Below, one piece after another: positions 1,213-64,000 of a stretch of DNA of 64,000 nt. Origin of the DNA: Escherichia coli (lineage in GTDB: Bacteria > Pseudomonadota > Gammaproteobacteria > Enterobacterales > Enterobacteriaceae); the NCBI RefSeq assembly GCF_009931435.1, contig NZ_CP043415.1, one strand, 5' to 3'. How positions within the stretch are numbered: position 1 is the stretch's first letter; each line of letters opens with the position of its first letter. The notes beneath the pieces were generated by a model. The model searched no databases and was not told the DNA's origin. It worked only from the letters and a program-made list of their open reading frames with translations. The position numbers were made by a program, and so were the translations under genes.

Positions 1213-4029
1213 TTATTTTTTATGCTGGTAACTCTTTGCTTTCTCTAAAAGCTCTTTCGGACTATCAGCACCAGGTATTCTTTCCTGAGCCAGCTTTTCT
1301 TCATTATATTTATTATTCTGAGTTAATGCTTCTGTTTTATGATGATTTTGTAGTTCAGAATACTGCCCTTTTACAATATTTTCCTCGCCTCGGATGCTGT
1401 TCTGAGTATCTCCGATATTACCTCGATATTCTGTGACCATATTATCAACCTGATGTTTTACATCATTACGGATATTACTGTCCTGCGTTCTTTGCTCAAT
1501 AATGGCCTGATGTCCCTGATGATCAGCAATAATATCCTGGCTGCCACCACCCGAAGGTACGCTCTCCATTCCTTTACCTATATCTCTACGGGATTCACGC
1601 CAGGTGTTATCAACACCAGGCTGTACCTGTTCCTGCACAAAAGACCACGCCATAGCCCGACGGCGTTCTGCAATCTCCGGCGAACTGGTATTTGTCAGAA
1701 TAGCTTCAACATCCTGCGGTGCGTTTTTCATCACATACTGTGCAAACTGTTGCGACAGATCTTCACTCATCTGCCCACTCATACTCTCAGTACGGGATGC
1801 CATTTCAGCATATTCATGGCTGCGGGTCATATTCGTCGTGTACTGGTCGTAACTCTGTTTCGCTGAATTCAGGGCTGCAGACAACTGATCCACACGGGAA
1901 TCAGCATTATTGTCAGTATGGCTGCCGGATTCACTGACTTTGCGGCTGGTAAAGTAATCGCTGGCTTCTTTAAAGTCTTGTGTAGCTCTGGCATCGATAT
2001 CATGACGAGCATCATGGCTGGCCCGTGAACCACTACTGGCTTCATGTGAGTCAAGATCACTGCCATCAATGCTTGCCTTAGCTCCGGCCTGGAGACCAAC
2101 CCCTCCACCGTTACCCAATACACTTATGCCTAAATGCCCTTTAGCATAAGCATCACCGTAAAGGCCAAGCGACGCATTTGTACTTCTCGAGGCCAGTTCT
2201 CTCGTCGCCTGCTCATTACTGATATTATGCGCCTTCGCATAGCTTTCCACTGCACTGCGCATACGGCTGGCCATCATGGAGTCCTGAGCACTCATCGTGC
2301 TGTCAGCACCACCAGTGACAGAGTCACTGCTCCCCCGGTTAGAGCCAAACTGACTGAGTGTGTTCCAGGCACTGGCAATACTGCTGCTGAAACCATGCAG
2401 GGCACTTTCGGCTCTGTTCGACGCCTCCCGGGCCATTTCCTGTTGTGCCGCTGCAATCTGACGCGTTGCATTGATACCGACCGGTAACCGGGACATCGCT
2501 CCGCTTGCATCCATCACCATATTACCGTCACGGGTCTGTGTGGCGGTTGCGCCACTGCCGGTCTGGTACATCATCTGACCAAACGACGTGGTGCTGTTGG
2601 TGCTCCAGCTGAAGCCGTTCACGTTTTCCGTCTGCATGTTGCCGTAGGAGTAATTACCGTCAACCACACTGCCTGCTGCACTGGCCGTTGGACTGATAGA
2701 TGAAGAGGCGAAGTGGCTGTACACGCTGGAAAAACCTGCGCCAAGGCCTTTTACCATCATCCATGACAACGGGGGGATCATGGCTGAAAGATACCCGGCA
2801 GTGGAGGCCAGGTCAGAGTATTTCAGCTGTATCTGAGAGAGTTCAGACAACACGACCGGCGCACCATTCTGTTTCGCATAGAATGTCATGGCACTGTTCA
2901 GAATGGCATACAACAACGGCCAGGTCTGCAGCCACATCAGGGCAAACACATACCCCTTTAATACAGACAATGTCAGCTTGTTAAAGACAGCCGCCAGTAT
3001 CAGGAGCGGGAATATACCAATGGCAATCCCCGTCAGGATAGTCTGGACCATCGGCAGGTTTCGCATAGTTACATGACCAATGGAGACATGTGCCAGACGT
3101 TGTTTCTCCATCGATGACGTGGTGGCCAGACTTACCAGGCTGGCGGTGTCACCGTTACGGGCTGCATTACTGGTGATACCCTCTTTCAGGGCATTCATGG
3201 TGACGTTCTGGCGCATAATCTGGCTGGCAGACTGACTGGAGCCGTAGAAATAACTGTAACTGTCACTGACCAGTTGTCTGAATAACAGGTCCGGGTCCGG
3301 TCTGCCGCCAAATATCTGCTGCACATAATAATGCCAGGTCTTGCCTCCCGTCTTTGTATCGAGATTCAGCCTGTCTTTCAGCGTGACCGACGCATCCTTA
3401 CAAGTTATGAAATTATTATTGTTGTCATAAACGCCCCGTAGCGGGCTGGGGCGGGAAAAAATCAGCGTGTAGGGGTCAGCGGAGGCCATCAGGTCTTCCA
3501 GCGTGTATTTATGATTCAGGTAAATATCACCCAGCACGCAGTTCTGGACGTAGTCCTGGAACAGATTGATGATTTCCGGATTCCGGGACAGGAAATCGGT
3601 GCTTTTCACAATCAGATTCGCCCCGAACAGCATCCCCGTTTTGCTGTAGGTGACGCTGTCCGGTTGCGTGAAGATCATCTCGTAACTGGCCACCATTGCA
3701 TGCCCGATACGGGTCGTCAGTGAAAGTGGCATCGCCAGACCGACCGGCACATTATCCACCCGGTGAACTTTGACCAGGTCACTGTTATCAATAATCTGCA
3801 CCGATGTGCGGACATTAACCAGCAGGCTGATAAGCACAAACACGGCCACCCAGCCCAGCAAATCCATCACGTTGTGCCGCTGTACCCACATTACGGCCAC
3901 CGCGAGAACAGACAATGTGAGCGCAATTTTTTCAATGGAATCCCACGTCCAGGTTCCCATAAAGGCGGCAATGGCGTTCAGGTTATTCCGCAACCACTCA
4001 CCACCGGCAATCACATAAACTTCATTCAC
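1213..4029 (-). CDS. traG: TraG mating-pair stabilisation / entry-exclusion protein
   Basis: 938-aa ORF, same length as F TraG, membrane N-terminal half, located between traH and traS. Confidence 0.9.
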   Translation of the reverse strand: MNEVYVIAGGEWLRNNLNAIAAFMGTWTWDSIEKIALTLSVLAVAVMWVQRHNVMDLLGWVAVFVLISLLVNVRTSVQIIDNSDLVKVHRVDNVPVGLAMPLSLTTRIGHAMVASYEMIFTQPDSVTYSKTGMLFGANLIVKSTDFLSRNPEIINLFQDYVQNCVLGDIYLNHKYTLEDLMASADPYTLIFSRPSPLRGVYDNNNNFITCKDASVTLKDRLNLDTKTGGKTWHYYVQQIFGGRPDPDLLFRQLVSDSYSYFYGSSQSASQIMRQNVTMNALKEGITSNAARNGDTASLVSLATTSSMEKQRLAHVSIGHVTMRNLPMVQTILTGIAIGIFPLLILAAVFNKLTLSVLKGYVFALMWLQTWPLLYAILNSAMTFYAKQNGAPVVLSELSQIQLKYSDLASTAGYLSAMIPPLSWMMVKGLGAGFSSVYSHFASSSISPTASAAGSVVDGNYSYGNMQTENVNGFSWSTNSTTSFGQMMYQTGSGATATQTRDGNMVMDASGAMSRLPVGINATRQIAAAQQEMAREASNRAESALHGFSSSIASAWNTLSQFGSNRGSSDSVTGGADSTMSAQDSMMASRMRSAVESYAKAHNISNEQATRELASRSTNASLGLYGDAYAKGHLGISVLGNGGGVGLQAGAKASIDGSDLDSHEASSGSRASHDARHDIDARATQDFKEASDYFTSRKVSESGSHTDNNADSRVDQLSAALNSAKQSYDQYTTNMTRSHEYAEMASRTESMSGQMSEDLSQQFAQYVMKNAPQDVEAILTNTSSPEIAERRRAMAWSFVQEQVQPGVDNTWRESRRDIGKGMESVPSGGGSQDIIADHQGHQAIIEQRTQDSNIRNDVKHQVDNMVTEYRGNIGDTQNSIRGEENIVKGQYSELQNHHKTEALTQNNKYNEEKLAQERIPGADSPKELLEKAKSYQHKK

Positions 4030-11083: not shown

Positions 11084-12076
11084 TCACAGGAAGACACAGT
11101 TACGTTTACGCCACATCAGGTAGCCGAAGTTTTTCTTTGTGTTGGGCGGATTTTTCCCGGTTTCCCAGCGGGTCACGCTGCGCCCGAACGGGTGGCACTG
11201 CCCGCTGTCCGGGTACATATTCACCATCTGGTAACGCCAGCGTTCTTTGGGCAGGATTGGGGACGGATATTCATTACAGACGGCGTTATTTTTCCCGATG
11301 GTTTCCATAATCATGCCCTGACGGTGCAGCTTGAACGCCATGCGTTCACTGACCAGCAGGGAGGACTGCAACGGACTGGACTCATTACTCACCCAGCCAT
11401 TGAACGGGTACATACTGCCCTGCGAACCGGCACACCAGAACAGAACATCGAGAGGCATATTAAAGGCGCTGGCAATCGCATCTGCTGCACAGGCCCCCTG
11501 TGCTATCGGATTGGCAAAGATGACAGCTTCCGGATTGAGAATGGTGGTCAGGCTGCTGTCCGTCCAGGTGGGGTCGATTTCAGAAAGATAAGCGATATCC
11601 AGGTCACCACCTTCCAGACAGCCCAGCGATGTGATGATGTTAAGCCAGTACGTCAGCGGGTATTTGTACCAGTGAACGTGATAGAACGCCCCGTTCACCT
11701 GCTTCTCATCCTTTTTCGCCGTTCCCTGTGCCGTTTTACCAAAAGCCGGCAGGCTGAAGCCCAGGTTCACCATGCATCCCGGTGATCGGGTGACGTCCGT
11801 CAGCGCCATCGGCTCCCAGTAACCAATGGCCAGCCCGATACGCCTGAACAGCGGCGGCGGTGCCGGACAAATCTGAATGGGCATCGACGGGTTCGCCGTG
11901 TCGGGGACCTTACCCTGACTGACTTTGATACTGCCCAGCGAGAGCGGGAAAATACAGCTCCAGCAGATATCCGTGATCGGGTTTACAAAACGCCCCTCAC
12001 AGGCAGAATCCGCAGACGCTGCAGGGACATGACCGGCGAGAAGGAATAACATCAGCAGCCACAGGCTTCGCTTCAT
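11084..12076 (-). CDS. traU: TraU pilus assembly / DNA transfer protein
   Basis: 330 aa, as F TraU; signal peptide MKRSLWLLMLFLLAGHVPAASA. Confidence 0.9.
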   Translation of the reverse strand: MKRSLWLLMLFLLAGHVPAASADSACEGRFVNPITDICWSCIFPLSLGSIKVSQGKVPDTANPSMPIQICPAPPPLFRRIGLAIGYWEPMALTDVTRSPGCMVNLGFSLPAFGKTAQGTAKKDEKQVNGAFYHVHWYKYPLTYWLNIITSLGCLEGGDLDIAYLSEIDPTWTDSSLTTILNPEAVIFANPIAQGACAADAIASAFNMPLDVLFWCAGSQGSMYPFNGWVSNESSPLQSSLLVSERMAFKLHRQGMIMETIGKNNAVCNEYPSPILPKERWRYQMVNMYPDSGQCHPFGRSVTRWETGKNPPNTKKNFGYLMWRKRNCVFL

Positions 12077-12705
12077 TTTCTGCCCTCCTCTGCCGGAATA
12101 AATTCCACCTTCAGGAAGCGATCGCCGGGAACGGCGCTCACCCGTGCCGGGACCTGATCAATGCCGAGGCGCTGGCAGAGCACACCGTTCTGGTCAAAGT
12201 AAACACGGCTGTCCAGAGACTTCTGCATCTCCGGGATACTGCCCTGCACGAGGATAATTTTGCTCTCCAGTATGGGCGGCGTCTGGCGTTTCATCCAGGC
12301 CACCTGCGCCGGATCATCGCCATTGATGAAATACAGCGTCTGGTTAAAAGGAACATACTGCAGCGGATTCATCACTTCACCCTGACGGGCAAACACCCGC
12401 CCTTCGTTATCCCGGATATCCGCAGCCAGTCTGACGGACGGGTCAAACAACCGGCTGCCGTATTTCTCCGTGCGTCCGATACCGGGCACGGCAGGGGGCC
12501 GCAGACTGTTGCGGATCACCCGCTCCTTAAAGGCATCCATTTTCCGGCCCATCTCACCGGACTGCTCCAGTGCCGTCAGGCGCTGCATGATCACCGTCAG
12601 CATGTCCGGCTCCTTTACCGGCCACAGATCGCCCCAGGTACCAAGATCGGCGGCGGCCACACTCTGCCCCCATATCAGCAGGGCAATCAGCCCCCGGCAT
12701 CTCAT
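12073..12705 (-). CDS. traW: TraW pilus assembly protein
   Basis: Start set at MRCRGLIALLIWGQSVAA (210 aa, as in F); overlaps the trbI stop. ORF track extends it to 12819. Confidence 0.85.
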   Translation of the reverse strand: MRCRGLIALLIWGQSVAAADLGTWGDLWPVKEPDMLTVIMQRLTALEQSGEMGRKMDAFKERVIRNSLRPPAVPGIGRTEKYGSRLFDPSVRLAADIRDNEGRVFARQGEVMNPLQYVPFNQTLYFINGDDPAQVAWMKRQTPPILESKIILVQGSIPEMQKSLDSRVYFDQNGVLCQRLGIDQVPARVSAVPGDRFLKVEFIPAEEGRK

Positions 12706-13088: not shown

Positions 13089-15712
13089 GCCACACTCCTG
13101 TATTTCTCATGTTCTTCCAGCCAGGCTTCCAGCGAAGCCATTTCCGGCCCTGACTTCTTCCACGCCAGCTGCCACACTGCCTCATGAATACTCAGCCCCT
13201 CTTTACGCTTCTGCTGCACAAACTCAAAATCCGGGCCGTCAGAGCTGTACATGGCGCGGCTTAACGGGTCCACAAACAGACGGTGCCAGGAGGAATGGTT
13301 TTCCACCTGCAGCAGGAAGGAACTGAACCACTGGTCTTTGGCCGCACCAAACTTACCAATCATGTCGCGCTGCAGTGGCAGGAACTGGTCCGGATACAGT
13401 TGGTTGTATTTCGCGAACTCCTTCGCACTCTGTTTGAGGATAATTTTGTAGGAGGAGTTACCCCATGCCGCGCGGGCAGCACTGGAGGCCTTATCAGAGT
13501 CAAAGTCGACGATGTTCTGTGTGATGGTGATATAGGCACCGGTATGACGGCGGGCCGTACGGTAGCCCTTCTCAATAAATTCACCGACCTTGTGATTTTT
13601 GAAGTCCAGCAGACGCCAGCCTTCATCAATAACGTTCAGTTTCTTGAGGTTACGCGGCGTGCGGTACATCCTGTTCTCGATGTAGATAATCAGGGAGAAC
13701 ATCACCGCAACCAGCAGTGACGGACGGTCTTCCAGTCCGCCCAGCTCCAGCACCACCATTTTTGCGTCATCCCGCAGGGACGGCTCATCAGAGTTAAAAT
13801 ACTGGCCGTAAGTGCCGTTGGCAGTGTACTGGTCAAGCAGCACAATCATTTCGTCCAGACGGCTGCGGATAGTCGGTGACTCGGCATACTGCTCGCTGTC
13901 ACTGGCGTTTTTCAGGAAATCCACCACGTCATCAATACGTGCTCTGTTCTCTTTGGCCAGCCAGGAGGCTCTGACCGCCTGCAACAGCAGACCTTCATGC
14001 ACTTCATCCAGGTTACCGTTGGGGCTGGCCATCACTGACAACTGGTCACGGACACGCTCCGCTGACTGGTCAATATCGGTGATGTTCGCAAACGGGTTAA
14101 AACGCAGGGTTTCACCGTCCAGATACACCCCGCCCATGTTCTCACACAGGGACTTGTATCCATCCCCCATGTCGAACACCACGGCAAAGCCTCCGGAGTC
14201 CAGCACGCTGCGGATAAGTGGCTGTATCAGCCCGGTTTTACCGGCCCCGGAGGTGCCACAGACCGCCATGTTGTAGTTGGTGTTATTCATCCCCCGGAAG
14301 AAAATATCGATAAACGCCAGCTGGTTACGGTAGGTGGGTGCCAGCAGACCTGCCGGTGTCAGGGGGTTATCCGCCACTAACGGCATCAGGTTGGCAACAT
14401 TAAAGCTCTCTGCGCGCTGAACCACTCCGGCCTCTTTCAGCTGTTTAAACAGCCCTTTCCCGGCCATAAAGGGCAGGCAGGTCAGGAAATTGCGCATGTG
14501 GTTAAAGCGCGGTGAAATCAGCTCAAAACCGTTTTTACGAAAGCTGTTCAGGATGTCCTGCTCCACTTCCAGTGCCGTTTCATTATTGTCCTTGCAGAAG
14601 GCTGTGATGTTGAGGAAGTAGGACACGACAGAGGACTGACCGGAGCCCAGCCGCTGACGCAGTTCCCCCCACTCCTTCGCCTCTTTCTCCACGGACGGAA
14701 ACCATTTGGCATAGGAGGTCTTCGACTTTTTCTCCAGGTCCATGTACTTCAGGTTGGCTTCGCTGTGGGTTTTCACCTGGTCTTCCACCACCAGAGTCAG
14801 CGTCAGGATGAACGGACAGGAGATGGACAGTTCCGGGTTCAGCAGGTTGCTGTAGTTGTCGGCCATGTTCCACAGGAAGGCGATTTCCGGGTTACGGGCC
14901 AGATGGAAATTCAGGATGCGGGCCGTGCTGTTCCTGCCGTTCTCACGCAGGCCCAGCGTCAGGTAATCAGCCCGGACTTTCAGATCAAAACTGTCCTCCA
15001 CACACTGATAATTCAGATCAGAATACGGGTCCAGCTGACGTCTTTTCGGGTACAGGGAATCCGGGTTATGGTTAATCATCTCCCCGACAATATCGATAAA
15101 GGCCTGTGCATCCACCGTCTGTGTGGTGATACTGGCCCCCTGTAACGACGCCCGGATGATTTTCACCAGGTTTTCCATTTCCAGAATGTCGGCCCGGCTT
15201 TTTTTCTTCGAGGGAGAACAGTACGAGATAAACACCCGGTAATGGCGCAGGGTCAGGGGCAGATTCATTCCCTCCGGCAGCGGAAACTGTGTCGCTGCCG
15301 CTTTCATATAATAGGCCCGGGTAATGGCGTTAAACCGTTCAGCCTGTTCACCTGACCAGGAGAACTCACGCAGCCCGTATTCAATCCTGTCACCAACCAG
15401 CTGACTGGACATCAGATGGATACACAACGGAATACCGCGCGGCAGTTTGGTGCGCAGCATGTGATCGAGGGCCTCCACAATGGACTCATTCGCCCCATTG
15501 ATGGGGATGGCTTCCAGCATAAAGCCCATCGTGGTGTCATTCATGAACAGACCGGATTCCTGGTTGTAATCACGGTACGGCAGCAGACGGCTGAACTGCG
15601 GGAAGCTCATTTCGCCCAGAACTTCATTGGCCTTTGCGGATTCGTCAGGCAGTTTCAGTGCTGTGACGAGGGAGTTAACCGCCTGAGTGACGGCCTCAAG
15701 TGGGTTATTCAC
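13085..15712 (-). CDS. traC: TraC type IV secretion ATPase (VirB4 family)
   Basis: 875-aa translation is near-identical to F TraC along its whole length (MNNPLEAVTQAVNSLVTALKLPDES...); Walker A GTSGAGKT. Confidence 0.97.
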   Translation of the reverse strand: MNNPLEAVTQAVNSLVTALKLPDESAKANEVLGEMSFPQFSRLLPYRDYNQESGLFMNDTTMGFMLEAIPINGANESIVEALDHMLRTKLPRGIPLCIHLMSSQLVGDRIEYGLREFSWSGEQAERFNAITRAYYMKAAATQFPLPEGMNLPLTLRHYRVFISYCSPSKKKSRADILEMENLVKIIRASLQGASITTQTVDAQAFIDIVGEMINHNPDSLYPKRRQLDPYSDLNYQCVEDSFDLKVRADYLTLGLRENGRNSTARILNFHLARNPEIAFLWNMADNYSNLLNPELSISCPFILTLTLVVEDQVKTHSEANLKYMDLEKKSKTSYAKWFPSVEKEAKEWGELRQRLGSGQSSVVSYFLNITAFCKDNNETALEVEQDILNSFRKNGFELISPRFNHMRNFLTCLPFMAGKGLFKQLKEAGVVQRAESFNVANLMPLVADNPLTPAGLLAPTYRNQLAFIDIFFRGMNNTNYNMAVCGTSGAGKTGLIQPLIRSVLDSGGFAVVFDMGDGYKSLCENMGGVYLDGETLRFNPFANITDIDQSAERVRDQLSVMASPNGNLDEVHEGLLLQAVRASWLAKENRARIDDVVDFLKNASDSEQYAESPTIRSRLDEMIVLLDQYTANGTYGQYFNSDEPSLRDDAKMVVLELGGLEDRPSLLVAVMFSLIIYIENRMYRTPRNLKKLNVIDEGWRLLDFKNHKVGEFIEKGYRTARRHTGAYITITQNIVDFDSDKASSAARAAWGNSSYKIILKQSAKEFAKYNQLYPDQFLPLQRDMIGKFGAAKDQWFSSFLLQVENHSSWHRLFVDPLSRAMYSSDGPDFEFVQQKRKEGLSIHEAVWQLAWKKSGPEMASLEAWLEEHEKYRSVA

Positions 15713-60063: not shown

Positions 60064-61257
60064 ATGTCACCTGGGATCGAAGATACGCCCCAAAAACCAC
60101 TGTCCTGCTGGCCACTTGCGTTCAGTGCCGGGCTTCTCGGTATCGGGCAGAACGGTCTGCTGGTTGTGCTCCCTGTTCTGGTCATACAGACAAATCTGAG
60201 TCTGTCTGTATGGGCTGCCCTGCTGATGCTTGGCTCAATGCTGTTTCTGCCATCGTCCCCGTGGTGGGGAAAGCAAATTTCCCGTACTGGCAGTAAACCT
60301 GTGGTGTTGTGGGCTCTGGGAGGATATGGCATAAGCTTTACCCTGCTAGGGCTGGGAAGCGTGCTGATGGCTACCAGCGCCATAACAACAGCGGTGGGAC
60401 TGGGAATATTAATCATCGCCCGGATCGCCTACGGGCTGACCGTGTCGGCAATGGTGCCAGCCTGTCAGGTCTGGGCATTGCAGAGAGCAGGAGAAGGGAA
60501 TCGCATGGCCGCTCTGGCAACCATCAGCTCCGGCCTGAGTTGCGGCAGGCTATTCGGGCCGCTGTGCGCGGCAGCAATGCTGGCCATTCATCCTCTGGCG
60601 CCACTGGGGCTGCTGATGGCAGCCCCAGTGCTGGCGCTGCTGATGCTGCTGCGGTTGCCCGGCACACCACCACAGCCCACACCGGAGCGCAAGAGCGTCA
60701 GTCTGAAGCGGGATTGTCTGCCTTATCTGCTTTGCGCAATATTACTGGCTGCGGCGGTGAGCATGATGCAGCTTGGACTTTCGCCTGCCCTTACTCGCCA
60801 GTTCGCCACGGATACCACCGCCATTAGCCAACAGGTGGCCTGGCTGTTGGGTCTGTCCGCAGTAGCTGCGCTTATCGCGCAGTTCGGGGTACTCCGTCCG
60901 CAGCGCCTGACTCCGGTGGCCCTGCTCCTGAGTGCCGGAGTGTTGATGAGTGGTGGTCTGGCTATCATGCTCTCCGAACAGCTATGGTTGTTTTACCCGG
61001 GCTGTGCAGTGCTGTCATTTGGAGCTGCTCTGGCAACACCCGCTTATCAACTTCTACTGAATGATAAGCTGGCTGATGGCGCAGGCGCGGGCTGGCTCGC
61101 TACCAGTCACACACTTGGCTATGGACTGTGCGCTTTGCTGGTGCCGCTGGTATCGAAAACAGGTGTCGCAATCGCGCTGATTATGGCGGCATTATTTGCA
61201 ACTATATTATTTACCATTGTGTCTGTATTTATCTGGCATTACCGTGCTATCAAATAA
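60064..61257 (+). CDS. shiF: ShiF-like MFS transporter divergent from the iuc operon
   Basis: 397 aa, about 12 predicted TM segments; divergently transcribed from the aerobactin promoter region. Confidence 0.75.
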   Translation: MSPGIEDTPQKPLSCWPLAFSAGLLGIGQNGLLVVLPVLVIQTNLSLSVWAALLMLGSMLFLPSSPWWGKQISRTGSKPVVLWALGGYGISFTLLGLGSVLMATSAITTAVGLGILIIARIAYGLTVSAMVPACQVWALQRAGEGNRMAALATISSGLSCGRLFGPLCAAAMLAIHPLAPLGLLMAAPVLALLMLLRLPGTPPQPTPERKSVSLKRDCLPYLLCAILLAAAVSMMQLGLSPALTRQFATDTTAISQQVAWLLGLSAVAALIAQFGVLRPQRLTPVALLLSAGVLMSGGLAIMLSEQLWLFYPGCAVLSFGAALATPAYQLLLNDKLADGAGAGWLATSHTLGYGLCALLVPLVSKTGVAIALIMAALFATILFTIVSVFIWHYRAIK

Positions 61258-61642
61258 AGATATGATCATCACCTTACCGGAGTAAATCAGAGGATATGAG
61301 AGAGAACCTGCGTCTGATGAAAGCATGTCAGGCAGTAACACTGGCAAAAATGCACCGCATGGTACAGGGTATGTTCGGTATAAAACCGGCCGGTGTCACT
61401 TAAGTTGCATTGAAGTCATGCTGGTTGTGAGTGCAACATCACATGGCTCTGTCCGGATGCCTGCAGACAATGAGAACAGTGCGATTACTCATTGGGAATG
61501 AGATGAACGCATCCCCAACATTAGATCTGGGGCACCGTGATAAATAAAGGGGAAAATCAGAGAGGTGTCGAGCCTCGCAGATTTCCGGCATCATAGTGCC
61601 CAATACGGGATGCATAAAACTCTCTCAGAGTGGCGTTGATAC

Positions 61643-62682
61643 CTGAAAGAGCTGGAGCGAGAAAATCGTGAACTGCGCCGCAGTAACGATATCCTTCGCC
61701 AGGCTTCCGCTTATTTTGCGAAGGCGGAGTTCGACCGCCTCTGGAAAAAATGATGCCACTGCTGGATAAGCTGCGTGAGCAGTACGGGGTCAGACCGGTA
61801 TGCAGCGAACTGCATATTGCCCCGTCAACGTATTACCATTGTCAGCAACAGCGACATCATCCGGATAAACGCAGTGCCCGTGCGCAGCACGATGACTGGC
61901 TGAAGAAAGAGATACAGCGCGTATACGATGAAAATCACCAGGTATACGGTGTGCGTAAAGTCTGGCGTCAGTTGTTACGGGAAGGTATCAGAGTGGCCAG
62001 ATGCACTGTGGCACGTCTCATGGCAGTTATGGGACTTGCCGGTGTTCTCCGGGGTAAAAAGGTCCGCACTACCGTCAGCCGGAAAGCCGTTGCCGCATGC
62101 GACCGCGTAAACCGTCAGTTCGTGGCAGAACGTCCAGACCAGTTGTGGGTGGCTGATTTTACCTGGGTAAGCACATGGCAGGGCTTCGTTTATGTGGCGT
62201 TCATCATTGATGTGTTCGCCGGATACATCGTGGGATGGCAGGTCTCATCATCCATGGAAACAACATTCGTGCTGGATGCACTGGAGCAGGCGTTGTGGGC
62301 CCGTCGGCCGTCCGGCACAATCCATCACAGTGATAAAGGTTCTCAGTATGTATCGCTGGCCTACACGCAGCGGCTTAAGGAAGCCGGATTACTGGCATCA
62401 ACAGGAAGTACAGGCGACTCGTATGACAACGCGATGGCGGAGAGCATCAATGGTCTTTACAAAGCGGAGGTAATACACCGTAAGAGCTGGAAAAACCGTG
62501 CAGAAGTGGAACTGGCCACACTAACGTGGGTGGACTGGTATAACAATCGACGATTGCTGGAAAGGCTGGGCCATACTCCTCCGGCAGAAGCAGAAAAAGC
62601 TTATTATGCTTCCATCGGAAATAATGATCTGGCAGCCTGAGTTCACAGATAAAATACTCTCCAGGAAACCCGGGGCGGTTCA
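61643..62682 (+). mobile_element. IS629/IS1203-like element, 5'-truncated copy (about IS positions 271-1310)
   Basis: Near-identical to the complete copy from the orfA 3' part through the right inverted repeat; left inverted repeat and orfA 5' end absent. Confidence 0.85.
61750..62640 (+). CDS. IS3-family transposase OrfB (second copy)
   Basis: 296 aa, differs from copy 1 at about 3 residues. Confidence 0.85.
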
Positions 62683-64000
62683 GCATGACCGGATTTTTAT
62701 CAGTGGGTAGACAGTTGGGAGTGAAGCCTGAACACACCCATTGTTGTCTGTGCACATCAAGCGTGGCCAGAATACGACCCGACGCGCTGTAAATTGCAAA
62801 CTGATGTGTATATACCGAACCGGTATATCCTGGCGGTACAGGGTTTATTTTTAACCATAGGAATTTATGACCACAACGTGTCAGATAATTCCAGACATGA
62901 ACTATTGATGCGCGCATTTAGTTCCTTAGTAAAAAGTCACCAATGGTAATTATGATGTGCAGCATAATCAGCTGCACATACCTCTACATCTGTCACTCTA
63001 ATGACTTTCTCCTACCGCAATCATCACTCCACTGATAATAATCAGACATATAGACACATTATTAAATTAACGAATGGCCGTTCCGGTGAGATCCGATTTT
63101 CTGTCTTATAACAACTTTCCGGAAGTGTAACACGGTTGCGTCTTGGCTCTTGCACCCTTTTCTGTCGTTGTGAACGGGCCCACAGGGAATGAAGGAGACA
63201 CAATATATAGTGTCATTAGCATCTAAATTAAGCACTATATGTTGTGCTGACAGAAGGTGGCGTTGTTGTGGGGGAAAAGGAAGATCCGTAACTATCAGGA
63301 CTCTGACGATTAGTCTTAAGACTGTCGGTAAATTAAGTGATATCAGTTGTCAGGATATTCATGGAGTCAGTCTGTATGCACCTTTGCCATTGAAACAAAC
63401 ATATGAAGTGTACTTCGGATATGACCGTATGTTCAGGAAGTACGGCAGATTGAGTCGAAAATTACCTGTAAAGACAGACATCAGAAAAACAGTGCTCGCC
63501 GCAGACCGGTGACCGGGCGAAGCCCGCGAACCGGCGAGGAAGCGCAATGGATCTGTAGTTACAGTGAGCAGGTACGCCCTGAAGCCTTCATAATCGGTAG
63601 TGTATGCTGTTTTTCTGGAATGATTTATCCACATATCCGGAGGCCCGATCCAGTAAACAGATCCATGAATGATCAACAAAGGATCCATTAAAGATCCCCA
63701 TATCTCTGCAAACCTTGTCACTCATGGGCCGGGACTACGATCACATAAGCTGTGGCATGTTACTGATAAACTGTAACATGCTAATGATAAGCTGTATTCA
63801 GTAATCCATATACTGAAGTAAGTTAATGACATAAACTATGGTCAGTATGCCAGACTCAGTTGTTAAATACAGGCTGCAGGTTTTTCTTCAGTCAGTTAGC
63901 GGAGTTCTGACACACGATTTTCTGTTTATTCTTTTACTGTCCACAGGCTGGAGGCTTTCTGGAAAACGAAAATTCAGACATCAAAAAACTGTTCGGCGAG

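Follow-up and report, generated by a model that had tools for sequence, protein, structure and literature searches.

The right-hand part (63480-64000) of the last 1318 bases of the window, by which we mean the whole stretch of 64,000 nucleotides analysed here, is almost certainly the origin, together with the cis-acting control elements, of a theta replicon which belongs to RepFIB (IncFIB) and is of the P307/F/pO157 type. Judged by its sequence, the tail under study (62683-64000) is made up of two parts, an accessory spacer (62683-63479) and the RepFIB replicon module (63480-64000). An earlier note on this DNA had left the tail unassigned; it now turns into an annotated replicon which is central to the IncF virulence and resistance plasmids and which lies here beside the aerobactin locus. 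The RepFIB origin as such is ordinary and has already been described, and its base-level annotation is now complete. The only feature which goes beyond routine annotation is a GC-rich hairpin at the left edge of the module, which we consider mildly interesting and which leaves the current understanding unchanged.

The RepFIB module and its neighbourhood

The tail directly follows a truncated insertion sequence, as the earlier note had stated: the right end of an IS3-family element (...GGTTCA) is found at 62682 and the tail begins at 62683. The element is truncated at its 5' end; its transposase ORF is contained in the ORF list (61750-62640) and its ALIL frameshift pseudoknot was detected by the Rfam scan (61708-61824). 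The tail had also been described as AT-rich, which holds insofar as its G+C content is lower than that of the whole window (0.432 versus 0.517), but the difference is moderate and not striking. In the nearest relative, L001 (NZ_CP065971.1, 98.2% identical), iucB, iucA, an MFS transporter gene and a truncated IS3-family transposase are found as in the window. The base which follows the end of the window is in L001 the annotated start of a "RepB family plasmid replication initiator protein", and a tyrosine recombinase gene comes next. This arrangement of rep and recombinase is also present in F, pO157, a Salmonella ColV-type plasmid and others. The extension of the window in downstream direction, which had been proposed as a check and which was done by way of this nearest relative, was therefore decisive: because the initiator gene starts here in L001 and the relatives are typed as IncFIB, the tail represents the DNA upstream of a RepFIB repA.

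Many database records stop exactly at the last base of the window, one base before the annotated rep start. Most likely the tail looks "terminal" because such assemblies have been rotated to begin at the rep gene, so that the window and many of these records are cut or rotated at the repA start set by PGAP. The body of repA and the downstream iterons lie outside the window, which contains only the upstream part of a putatively intact and active replicon.

In total 3211 plasmid records match the tail, almost all of them IncF plasmids and from Escherichia. The homology falls into classes which begin at 63198, 63287, 63385, 63490 or 63585 and which all reach the end of the window, and more than 3000 plasmids show an identity of 92-99% from 63385, 63490 or 63585 to this end. 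Distant relatives from Salmonella, Klebsiella, Citrobacter and Enterobacter (67-70% identity) align from 63490 to about 63850. The published figure of the FIB regions of F and pO157 (Lloyd et al. 2025, Fig. S2) aligns base for base from position 63601 of the window; in addition, the sequence of plasmid F (NC_002483) was aligned directly. The sequence features by which RepFIB membership can be recognised are found in the module, namely the location upstream of repA, the iteron set, the identity to the reference sequences and a CTG codon behind a GGAGG-type ribosome binding site (RBS).

While no recognisable motifs had been noticed in the tail before, its right-hand 520 bp hold a DnaA box, a GATC cluster and five 21-bp iterons. 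The DnaA box (TTATCCACA, 63625-63633, plus strand) matches the consensus perfectly, which only one other site in the 64 kb does. Across eight FIB-family origins a single one of its nine positions varies, the E. kobei sequence being TTATGCACA, and Fig. 3 of Lloyd et al. 2025 likewise shows a DnaA binding site. Five GATC (Dam) sites start at 63647, 63660, 63671, 63682 and 63693 (63647-63696) with a spacing of 13, 11, 11 and 11 bp, which is about one helical turn. Nowhere else in the window are GATC sites so dense: five are found here in 50 bp, whereas the background is 2.3 per kb. All five sites are conserved in the FIB-family alignment, and the stretch is presumed to be the DNA-unwinding stretch of the origin.

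The cores (19 nt) of five direct iterons were located by a pattern search on the plus strand: B (63745-63763), C (63766-63784), D (63787-63805), D' (63808-63826) and D* (63831-63849). The set spans 63745-63849 with a spacing of 21, 21, 21 and 23 bp. Four of the copies are the only matches to the pattern in the window with at most two mismatches, the fifth has three. Labels and positions follow Supplementary Fig. S2 of Lloyd et al. 2025, where the published 20-21-mers start 2 nt earlier than our 19-nt cores. Related iteron copies in both orientations occur downstream of repA in L001, a region which is outside the window. The upstream iterons (63745-63849) are the RepA-binding iterons of the origin and probably also the operator of repA. 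Just upstream of the RBS lies a sequence similar to a DnaA box (CTGTCCACA, 63937-63945, plus strand, seven of nine matches), which is conserved as CTATCCACC in the FIB-like replicons of pMAR2, Salmonella and Klebsiella and which could be a right-hand DnaA site. A strict scan for sigma-70 promoters returned 0 sites, and the best candidate of a relaxed position-weight scan (ATGATA-19-TATACT at 63784/63809) scored 8.4, compared to 9.1 for the 90th percentile of the background.

The family alignment comprises eight FIB-type upstream regions: those of the window, an O18:H1 plasmid, pO157, pMAR2, two Salmonella plasmids, K. michiganensis and E. kobei. The order hairpin, DnaA box, five GATC sites, five iterons, DnaA-like box, RBS and CTG is common to the E. 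coli, pMAR2, Salmonella and Klebsiella sequences, with pO157 being without the hairpin. In E. kobei the order is shared up to the iterons, the sequence of which differs, and the stretch with RBS and CTG does not align.

The RBS of repA (GGAGG, 63950-63954, plus strand) was assigned according to the text and Fig. S2 of Lloyd et al. 2025. A 29-nt string (GTCCACAGGCTGGAGGCTTTCTGGAAAAC), quoted by these authors for the clade which includes P307, is found exactly at 63939-63967, and the T at 63949 is the SNP of the P307 clade. The RBS here is of the strong pO157/P307 type (GGAGG), in contrast to the weak AGAAGG of F, and it is this weaker RBS to which the replication defect of the FIB replicon of F has been mapped (Lloyd et al. 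2025). The same study gives CTG as the start codon of the FIB rep and a RepA of 339 aa beginning with MENENSDIKKLFGEVDKS. Because the peptide encoded from 63959 (MENENSDIKKLFGE) equals the N-terminus of this published, CTG-initiated RepA, the last 42 bases of the window can be regarded as coding; they comprise the first 14 codons of repA (M-E-N-E-N-S-D-I-K-K-L-F-G-E, 63959-64000, plus strand), and the gene runs past the end of the window. The CTG at 63959 is in frame with the GTG start which PGAP places one base after the window end, and the RepA product, with 339 aa counted from the CTG, matches the Pfam family Rep3_N, the gene body being outside the window. We infer from this agreement in sequence that the CTG codon is used as the repA start in this plasmid. 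As the PGAP start lies 14 codons downstream of the published CTG start, which has experimental support, the annotation truncates RepA by 14 residues and hides the RBS. The strong GGAGG predicts an active FIB replicon, and this predicted activity would be relevant for incompatibility typing and for the design of plasmid-curing approaches.

The spacer and the two open reading frames

The left-hand part of the tail (62683-63479) is a spacer which stretches from the IS3-family right end to the RepFIB module, and which appears to be non-coding and to hold part of two chance ORFs. Window and L001 are identical across all of it, since all 23 substitutions and the single indel between the two lie at or beyond 63480. 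Of the 3211 plasmids with a match only 20 align over 80% or more of the query 62683-64000, and about 20 E. coli plasmids carry the whole 1318 bp with an identity of 96-98%. For the spacer neither a Pfam nor an Rfam match was obtained, and no gene is annotated there in the relatives inspected. An Rfam scan of 61000-64000 (E<=1) returned only the ALIL pseudoknot of the IS3-family element plus a chance mir-968 match on a local hairpin, the source of which is a 14-nt inverted repeat within the spacer (63199-63212/63233-63246). The matches of a terminator scan, at 62676 and 62827, are weak.

In plasmids without the IS junction the sequence runs on leftwards from ...GCATGACCGG. One of these, L006, has a hypothetical gene of 147 aa on the minus strand to the left of the spacer. 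This continuity suggests that the DNA from 62683 onward was once the upstream region of the 147-aa gene, which has been removed here by the IS. Furthermore, a different IncF plasmid contains a counterpart of 62728-63136 (82% identity), flanked there by a hypothetical gene and by vapBC. Together with the adjoining truncated IS these two observations could be taken to mean that a gene or another mobile element has decayed in the tail, chiefly in 62683-63479, and has left a remnant there. We consider this improbable, because the ORFs give no protein-family signal in Pfam and no gene is annotated in the relatives inspected; the 147-aa gene of L006 and other neighbouring hypothetical genes of the relatives were searched against Pfam as well, with no match. 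The earlier note had offered "a gene remnant or a regulatory region" for the tail. The regulatory half of this suggestion fits 63480-64000 well, with the origin, the putatively autoregulatory iterons and the first 14 repA codons. For the gene remnant half there is no support, as a Pfam match is lacking, the frames are lost in relatives and no gene is annotated in those inspected. We therefore prefer to see the spacer as probably functionless DNA, which would have been brought beside the replicon by IS3-family activity and recombination.

The two overlapping ORFs which had been listed for this region are indeed present, one on the plus strand (63189-63512, 107 aa) and one on the minus strand (63359-63721, 120 aa). 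We regard both as spurious, that is as chance ORFs and not as genes. In dinucleotide shuffles of the tail the longest ORF reaches at least 107 aa in 14% and at least 120 aa in 7% of the cases. Two ORFs of at least 107 aa are found in only 1.4% of the shuffles, and this rarity of the pair, besides the existence of both ORFs and the fact that pipelines occasionally annotate a "hypothetical protein" hereabouts in some plasmids, is what could be brought forward for one or both of them encoding real small proteins. Several observations make such a coding function extremely improbable. A Pfam search with five ORFs of the tail gave no match, and relatives do not preserve the reading frames: owing to a 1-bp indel at 63484 the plus-strand ORF has a different C-terminus in L001 and L006, and the minus-strand ORF is broken by stops or frameshifts in all relatives examined (L001, L002, L004, L005 and L006). 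Between L006 and the window about eight of the nine substitutions in the plus-strand ORF at 63387-63472 are non-synonymous, and the first two thirds of this ORF are missing from most FIB plasmids, in which the homology begins at 63385 or later. The conservation which is seen under the minus-strand ORF can be explained by the DnaA box, the GATC cluster and the hairpin, all of which overlap the frame. Finally, in the relatives inspected no gene is annotated under the tail; one record has a 67-bp partial "hypothetical protein" pseudogene which abuts its end.

The GC-rich hairpin

The left edge of the origin module is formed by a GC-rich hairpin of 51 nt, GCTCGCCGCAG...CGAGGAAGCG (63494-63544, plus strand). 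In diverged FIB-like replicons, in which the flanking sequences are only 67-70% identical, the segment 63490-63548 retains an identity of 93-95%. A query of 67 nt with the hairpin found at least 5000 plasmid records with more than 8000 places, while searches for the hairpin among phages and Rfam families gave no match. Copies precede FIB-type rep genes and, at a distance of about 360-420 bp, the repE gene of FIA-type replicons; others occupy the opposite strand between repE and sopA or lie beside rop in a ColE1-type plasmid of 3.6 kb. Plasmid F alone harbours three of them: one upstream of the FIB rep, which is identical to that of the window, one in the ori2 region, 365 bp before repE, and one on the opposite strand in the interval between repE and sopA. 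The FIA copies of F are only about 80% identical to the FIB copy. An ssi of F is said to have been described by Nomura and co-workers in 1991.

The hairpin can also be aligned with the pMB1/pUC sequence GCTCGCCGCAGCCGAACGACCGAGCGCAGCGAGTCAGTGAGCGAGGAAGCG, which was confirmed to be real by 100% matches. With RNA I as a landmark, this pMB1 element is found on the RNA II-sense strand and follows the replication start at a distance of about 120-175 nt; among ColE1-type plasmids the range is about 45-175 nt. Judging by this location, the published factor-Y (PriA) effector site probably corresponds to the bases of the pMB1/ColE1 element. Shared between the RepFIB hairpin and this element are the flanks GCTCGCCGCAG and CGAGGAAGCG, the length of 51 nt and a hairpin with a covarying stem. 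They differ in the inner stem, where RepFIB has G-C pairs and the ColE1-type element tandem G.A mismatches, and also in their setting: the RepFIB hairpin accompanies a Rep/iteron origin, about 80 nt beyond the DnaA box on the outer side, and is directed 5' to 3' towards this origin, whereas that of ColE1 is directed away from its own.

To the covariation analysis 23 variants with the characteristic interior contributed. They were picked from the matches of a pattern scan of species-representative genomes, so that the flanks are invariant by construction; the scan gave 99 distinct variants, which include chance matches in high-GC genomes and probable pMB1 vector contamination. Among the 23 variants the pair 16-38 is AU in 12 and GC in 11, and the pair 17-37 is UA in 15 and CG in eight, with no unpaired cells; the pair 24-30 is GC in 20 and AU in three. 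For these pattern-chosen variants the covariation score amounts to 0.219, whereas shuffles give 0.118 and slid registers do not exceed 0.078. The compensatory changes thus support a hairpin fold of the single strand which is probably conserved. Shorter variants have perfect but wholly different stems between the same flanks. The covariation is more informative than the folding of the hairpin region alone, for which the z-scores are modest (-2.0 as RNA, -1.4 as DNA).

With slightly better than even confidence we consider the hairpin to be a putative PriA-type primosome assembly or single-strand initiation site (pas/ssi) which is functional in this replicon. That it accompanies four replicon types which are unrelated to each other speaks for a role in replication. 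Alternatively, the hairpin might not be a priming site but a terminator which insulates the origin, a small structured RNA, or a recombination hotspot. The idea of a terminator is suggested by the minus strand, on which the hairpin is followed by CACTGTTTTTCT in the window, but this T-run is absent in pMAR2 and others, and a structured RNA is not backed by any match to an Rfam family. What speaks for recombination is the distribution of the homology. The window is 100% identical to L001 left of the hairpin and 95.6% identical from 63480 rightwards, so that, going by these identities, the origin allele is mosaic relative to its flanks with the junction at the hairpin; the homology to the distant relatives starts exactly at the hairpin, too. 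However, the positions of the homologues elsewhere point to priming. The ColE1-type homologue is found just downstream of the replication start, where the n'-pas/ssiA of ColE1 has been placed, downstream of ori and in the position of the pMB1 element (PMC3167613; PMC2831885). Likewise, the F copy 365 bp upstream of repE belongs to the ori2 region of mini-F, in which a primosome assembly site has been reported (Imber et al. 1983). We therefore regard the non-priming explanations as unlikely and retain the pas/ssi interpretation.

Even as a priming site the hairpin is not essential for replication, because pO157, which has no hairpin within 3 kb of its FIB region, nevertheless possesses a FIB replicon which replicates autonomously (Lloyd et al. 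2025). In plasmids of the pIGRK/pHW126 type an ssi-like palindrome beside the iterons is dispensable and affects copy number and multimerisation (PMC6854812). It is possible, although this is speculation, that one role of the RepFIB hairpin consists in priming the leftward leading strand and in loading the second helicase after the origin has been opened. A more far-reaching idea, which we can put forward only as doubtful, is that the hairpin represents a portable PriA-type priming module which has been taken up at the outer margin of no fewer than four unrelated types of enterobacterial replicons, i.e. RepFIB, FIA/RepE, ColE1 and pHW126-like. If this was true, and if the element has never been tied functionally to RepFIB, it could be a general helper of iteron/DnaA origins, where it would serve to prime the first leading strand or to load the second helicase. 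The hairpin could then also be a preferred crossover point by which origin alleles are swapped between IncF plasmids.

Proposed mechanism and comparison with known systems

The RepA of RepFIB is 46% identical to the RepA of phage P1 (E 4e-70), and the similarity extends to the organisation of the origin. In the P1 oriR records the annotated order is DnaA site, four (one record) or five (the other) Dam sites, five incC iterons containing the promoter PrepA, repA and incA. The window has the same order with a similar spacing, namely DnaA box, (A/G)GATCC repeats, five direct iterons and rep, and its DnaA box corresponds in relative position to the DnaA site which is annotated in P1 oriR. P1 also has a sequence resembling a DnaA box (CTATCCACA, ATCCACA) just before the start codon of repA. 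Initiation in P1 depends on the Dam methylation of the GATC repeats and on DnaA.

The identity of the RepFIB module, its parts, their order and their conservation are established; every biochemical step in this particular plasmid is what we infer. The mechanism proposed here was drawn from the analogy to P1 oriR and from the published work on RepFIB, and this scheme is the best-supported one because the RepA proteins are homologous and the order of the elements matches the annotation of P1 oriR. For RepFIB, the position of the promoter and the dependence on DnaA and on Dam are suggested by the P1 analogy. According to the scheme, RepA monomers would bind the five upstream iterons B, C, D, D' and D*, and the host DnaA would bind the box at 63625. 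Together they would open the adjacent A+T-richer stretch which carries the five helically phased GATC sites, and these sites would make initiation sensitive to Dam methylation and hemimethylation. After opening, DnaB would be loaded and replication would begin. The GC hairpin (63494-63544) would most likely act as an auxiliary site for single-strand priming or helicase loading (PriA primosome) once the DNA is unwound.

RepA itself would be translated from the CTG at 63959 behind the GGAGG. The upstream iterons are proposed to overlap the promoter/operator of repA, and because of this overlap RepA would repress its own weak expression. Rep expression has indeed been described as weak and autoregulated (Lloyd et al. 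2025). A second iteron set downstream of repA may pair with the upstream set ("handcuffing") and thereby limit the copy number. In the experiments of Lloyd et al. 2025 the downstream iteron block E-J exerts incompatibility, while the upstream block alone does not.

Although the order of the elements is the same, RepFIB and P1 differ in a number of details. The iterons have different sequences (ATAARCTGT... in P1, GATGTGTGCTGGAGGG in RepFIB), and RepFIB has one upstream DnaA box, whereas P1 has two in tandem. The leader comprises about 110 nt in RepFIB compared to 57 nt in P1, and the start codon of the RepFIB repA is CTG. Of the GC hairpin no copy was found in P1-type phages at the sensitivity used. 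Compared to the RepFIB replicons of P307, F and pO157, in contrast, nothing of substance is different in the window: the DnaA box, the GATC cluster, the iterons B-D* and the CTG start are the same. Apart from the strong RBS, in which it differs from F, and the P307-clade SNP, this copy is distinguished by its upstream neighbour, as the module is preceded here by an IS3-family remnant and a rare spacer of 800 bp, where F and pO157 have genes instead.

The IS3-family remnant and the spacer

An IS3-family element without its left end (61258-62682) separates the RepFIB region from an MFS (shiF-like) gene, the neighbour of the aerobactin genes. Only the orfA tail, the ALIL pseudoknot (61708-61824) and orfB (61750-62640) remain of it, and the closest relative plasmid, NZ_CP065971.1, has the identical junction. 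The spacer that follows carries a 14-nt inverted repeat, CACAATATATAGTG / CACTATATGTTGTG (63199-63246), from which an Rfam match to mir-968 was obtained below threshold. One plasmid homology class begins at 63198, just ahead of this repeat.

The mosaic junction and the GC hairpin

While the window and NZ_CP065971.1 are 100% identical over the spacer (62683-63479), they differ at 23 positions over the origin module (63480-64000), with the mosaic junction at 63480-63491. Therefore the origin allele, which carries the P307-clade SNP (T at 63949), is, judged from this comparison, one that was swapped in by recombination at the GC hairpin. This hairpin of 51 nt, with the invariant flanks GCTCGCCGCAG / CGAGGAAGCG, is present in a single copy in the window (63494-63544). 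It was found in at least 5000 plasmids, where the copies adjoin FIB, FIA/RepE, ColE1 and small iteron replicons; plasmid F harbours three of them (positions in the F stretch compared: 2078-2128, minus strand; 12032-12082, plus strand; 13566-13616, minus strand). The stem shows covariation, and the element a short way downstream of the pMB1 ori is homologous to the hairpin, which probably represents a PriA primosome assembly (ssi) site.

The repA start and its upstream site

The experimentally supported start of repA is the CTG at 63959, which concerns positions 63959-64000 of the window. PGAP starts the gene 14 codons downstream, at a GTG that follows the window end, so that the RefSeq entries carry a truncated RepA. 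Many plasmid records stop one base short of the PGAP-annotated start. Directly 5' of the repA RBS a DnaA-box-like sequence, CTGTCCACA, is found (63937-63945). Diverged FIB-like replicons keep it as CTATCCACC and phage P1 has a counterpart, CTATCCACA, ahead of its own repA. This site may serve the origin as a right-hand DnaA site, or it may regulate repA expression.

Comparison with the Enterobacter kobei replicon

The FIB-like replicon of E. kobei pDW108 (positions 2001-2400 of the stretch compared) shares with the window the same hairpin, a DnaA box (in pDW108 TTATGCACA) and the GATC cluster, but its iterons (TTTATAAAxCGGA) are quite different. Its hairpin stem shows two compensatory changes, CACG/CGTG replacing CCGG/CCGG. 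By its sequence, pDW108 is a natural case of iteron specificity switching on a conserved origin scaffold.
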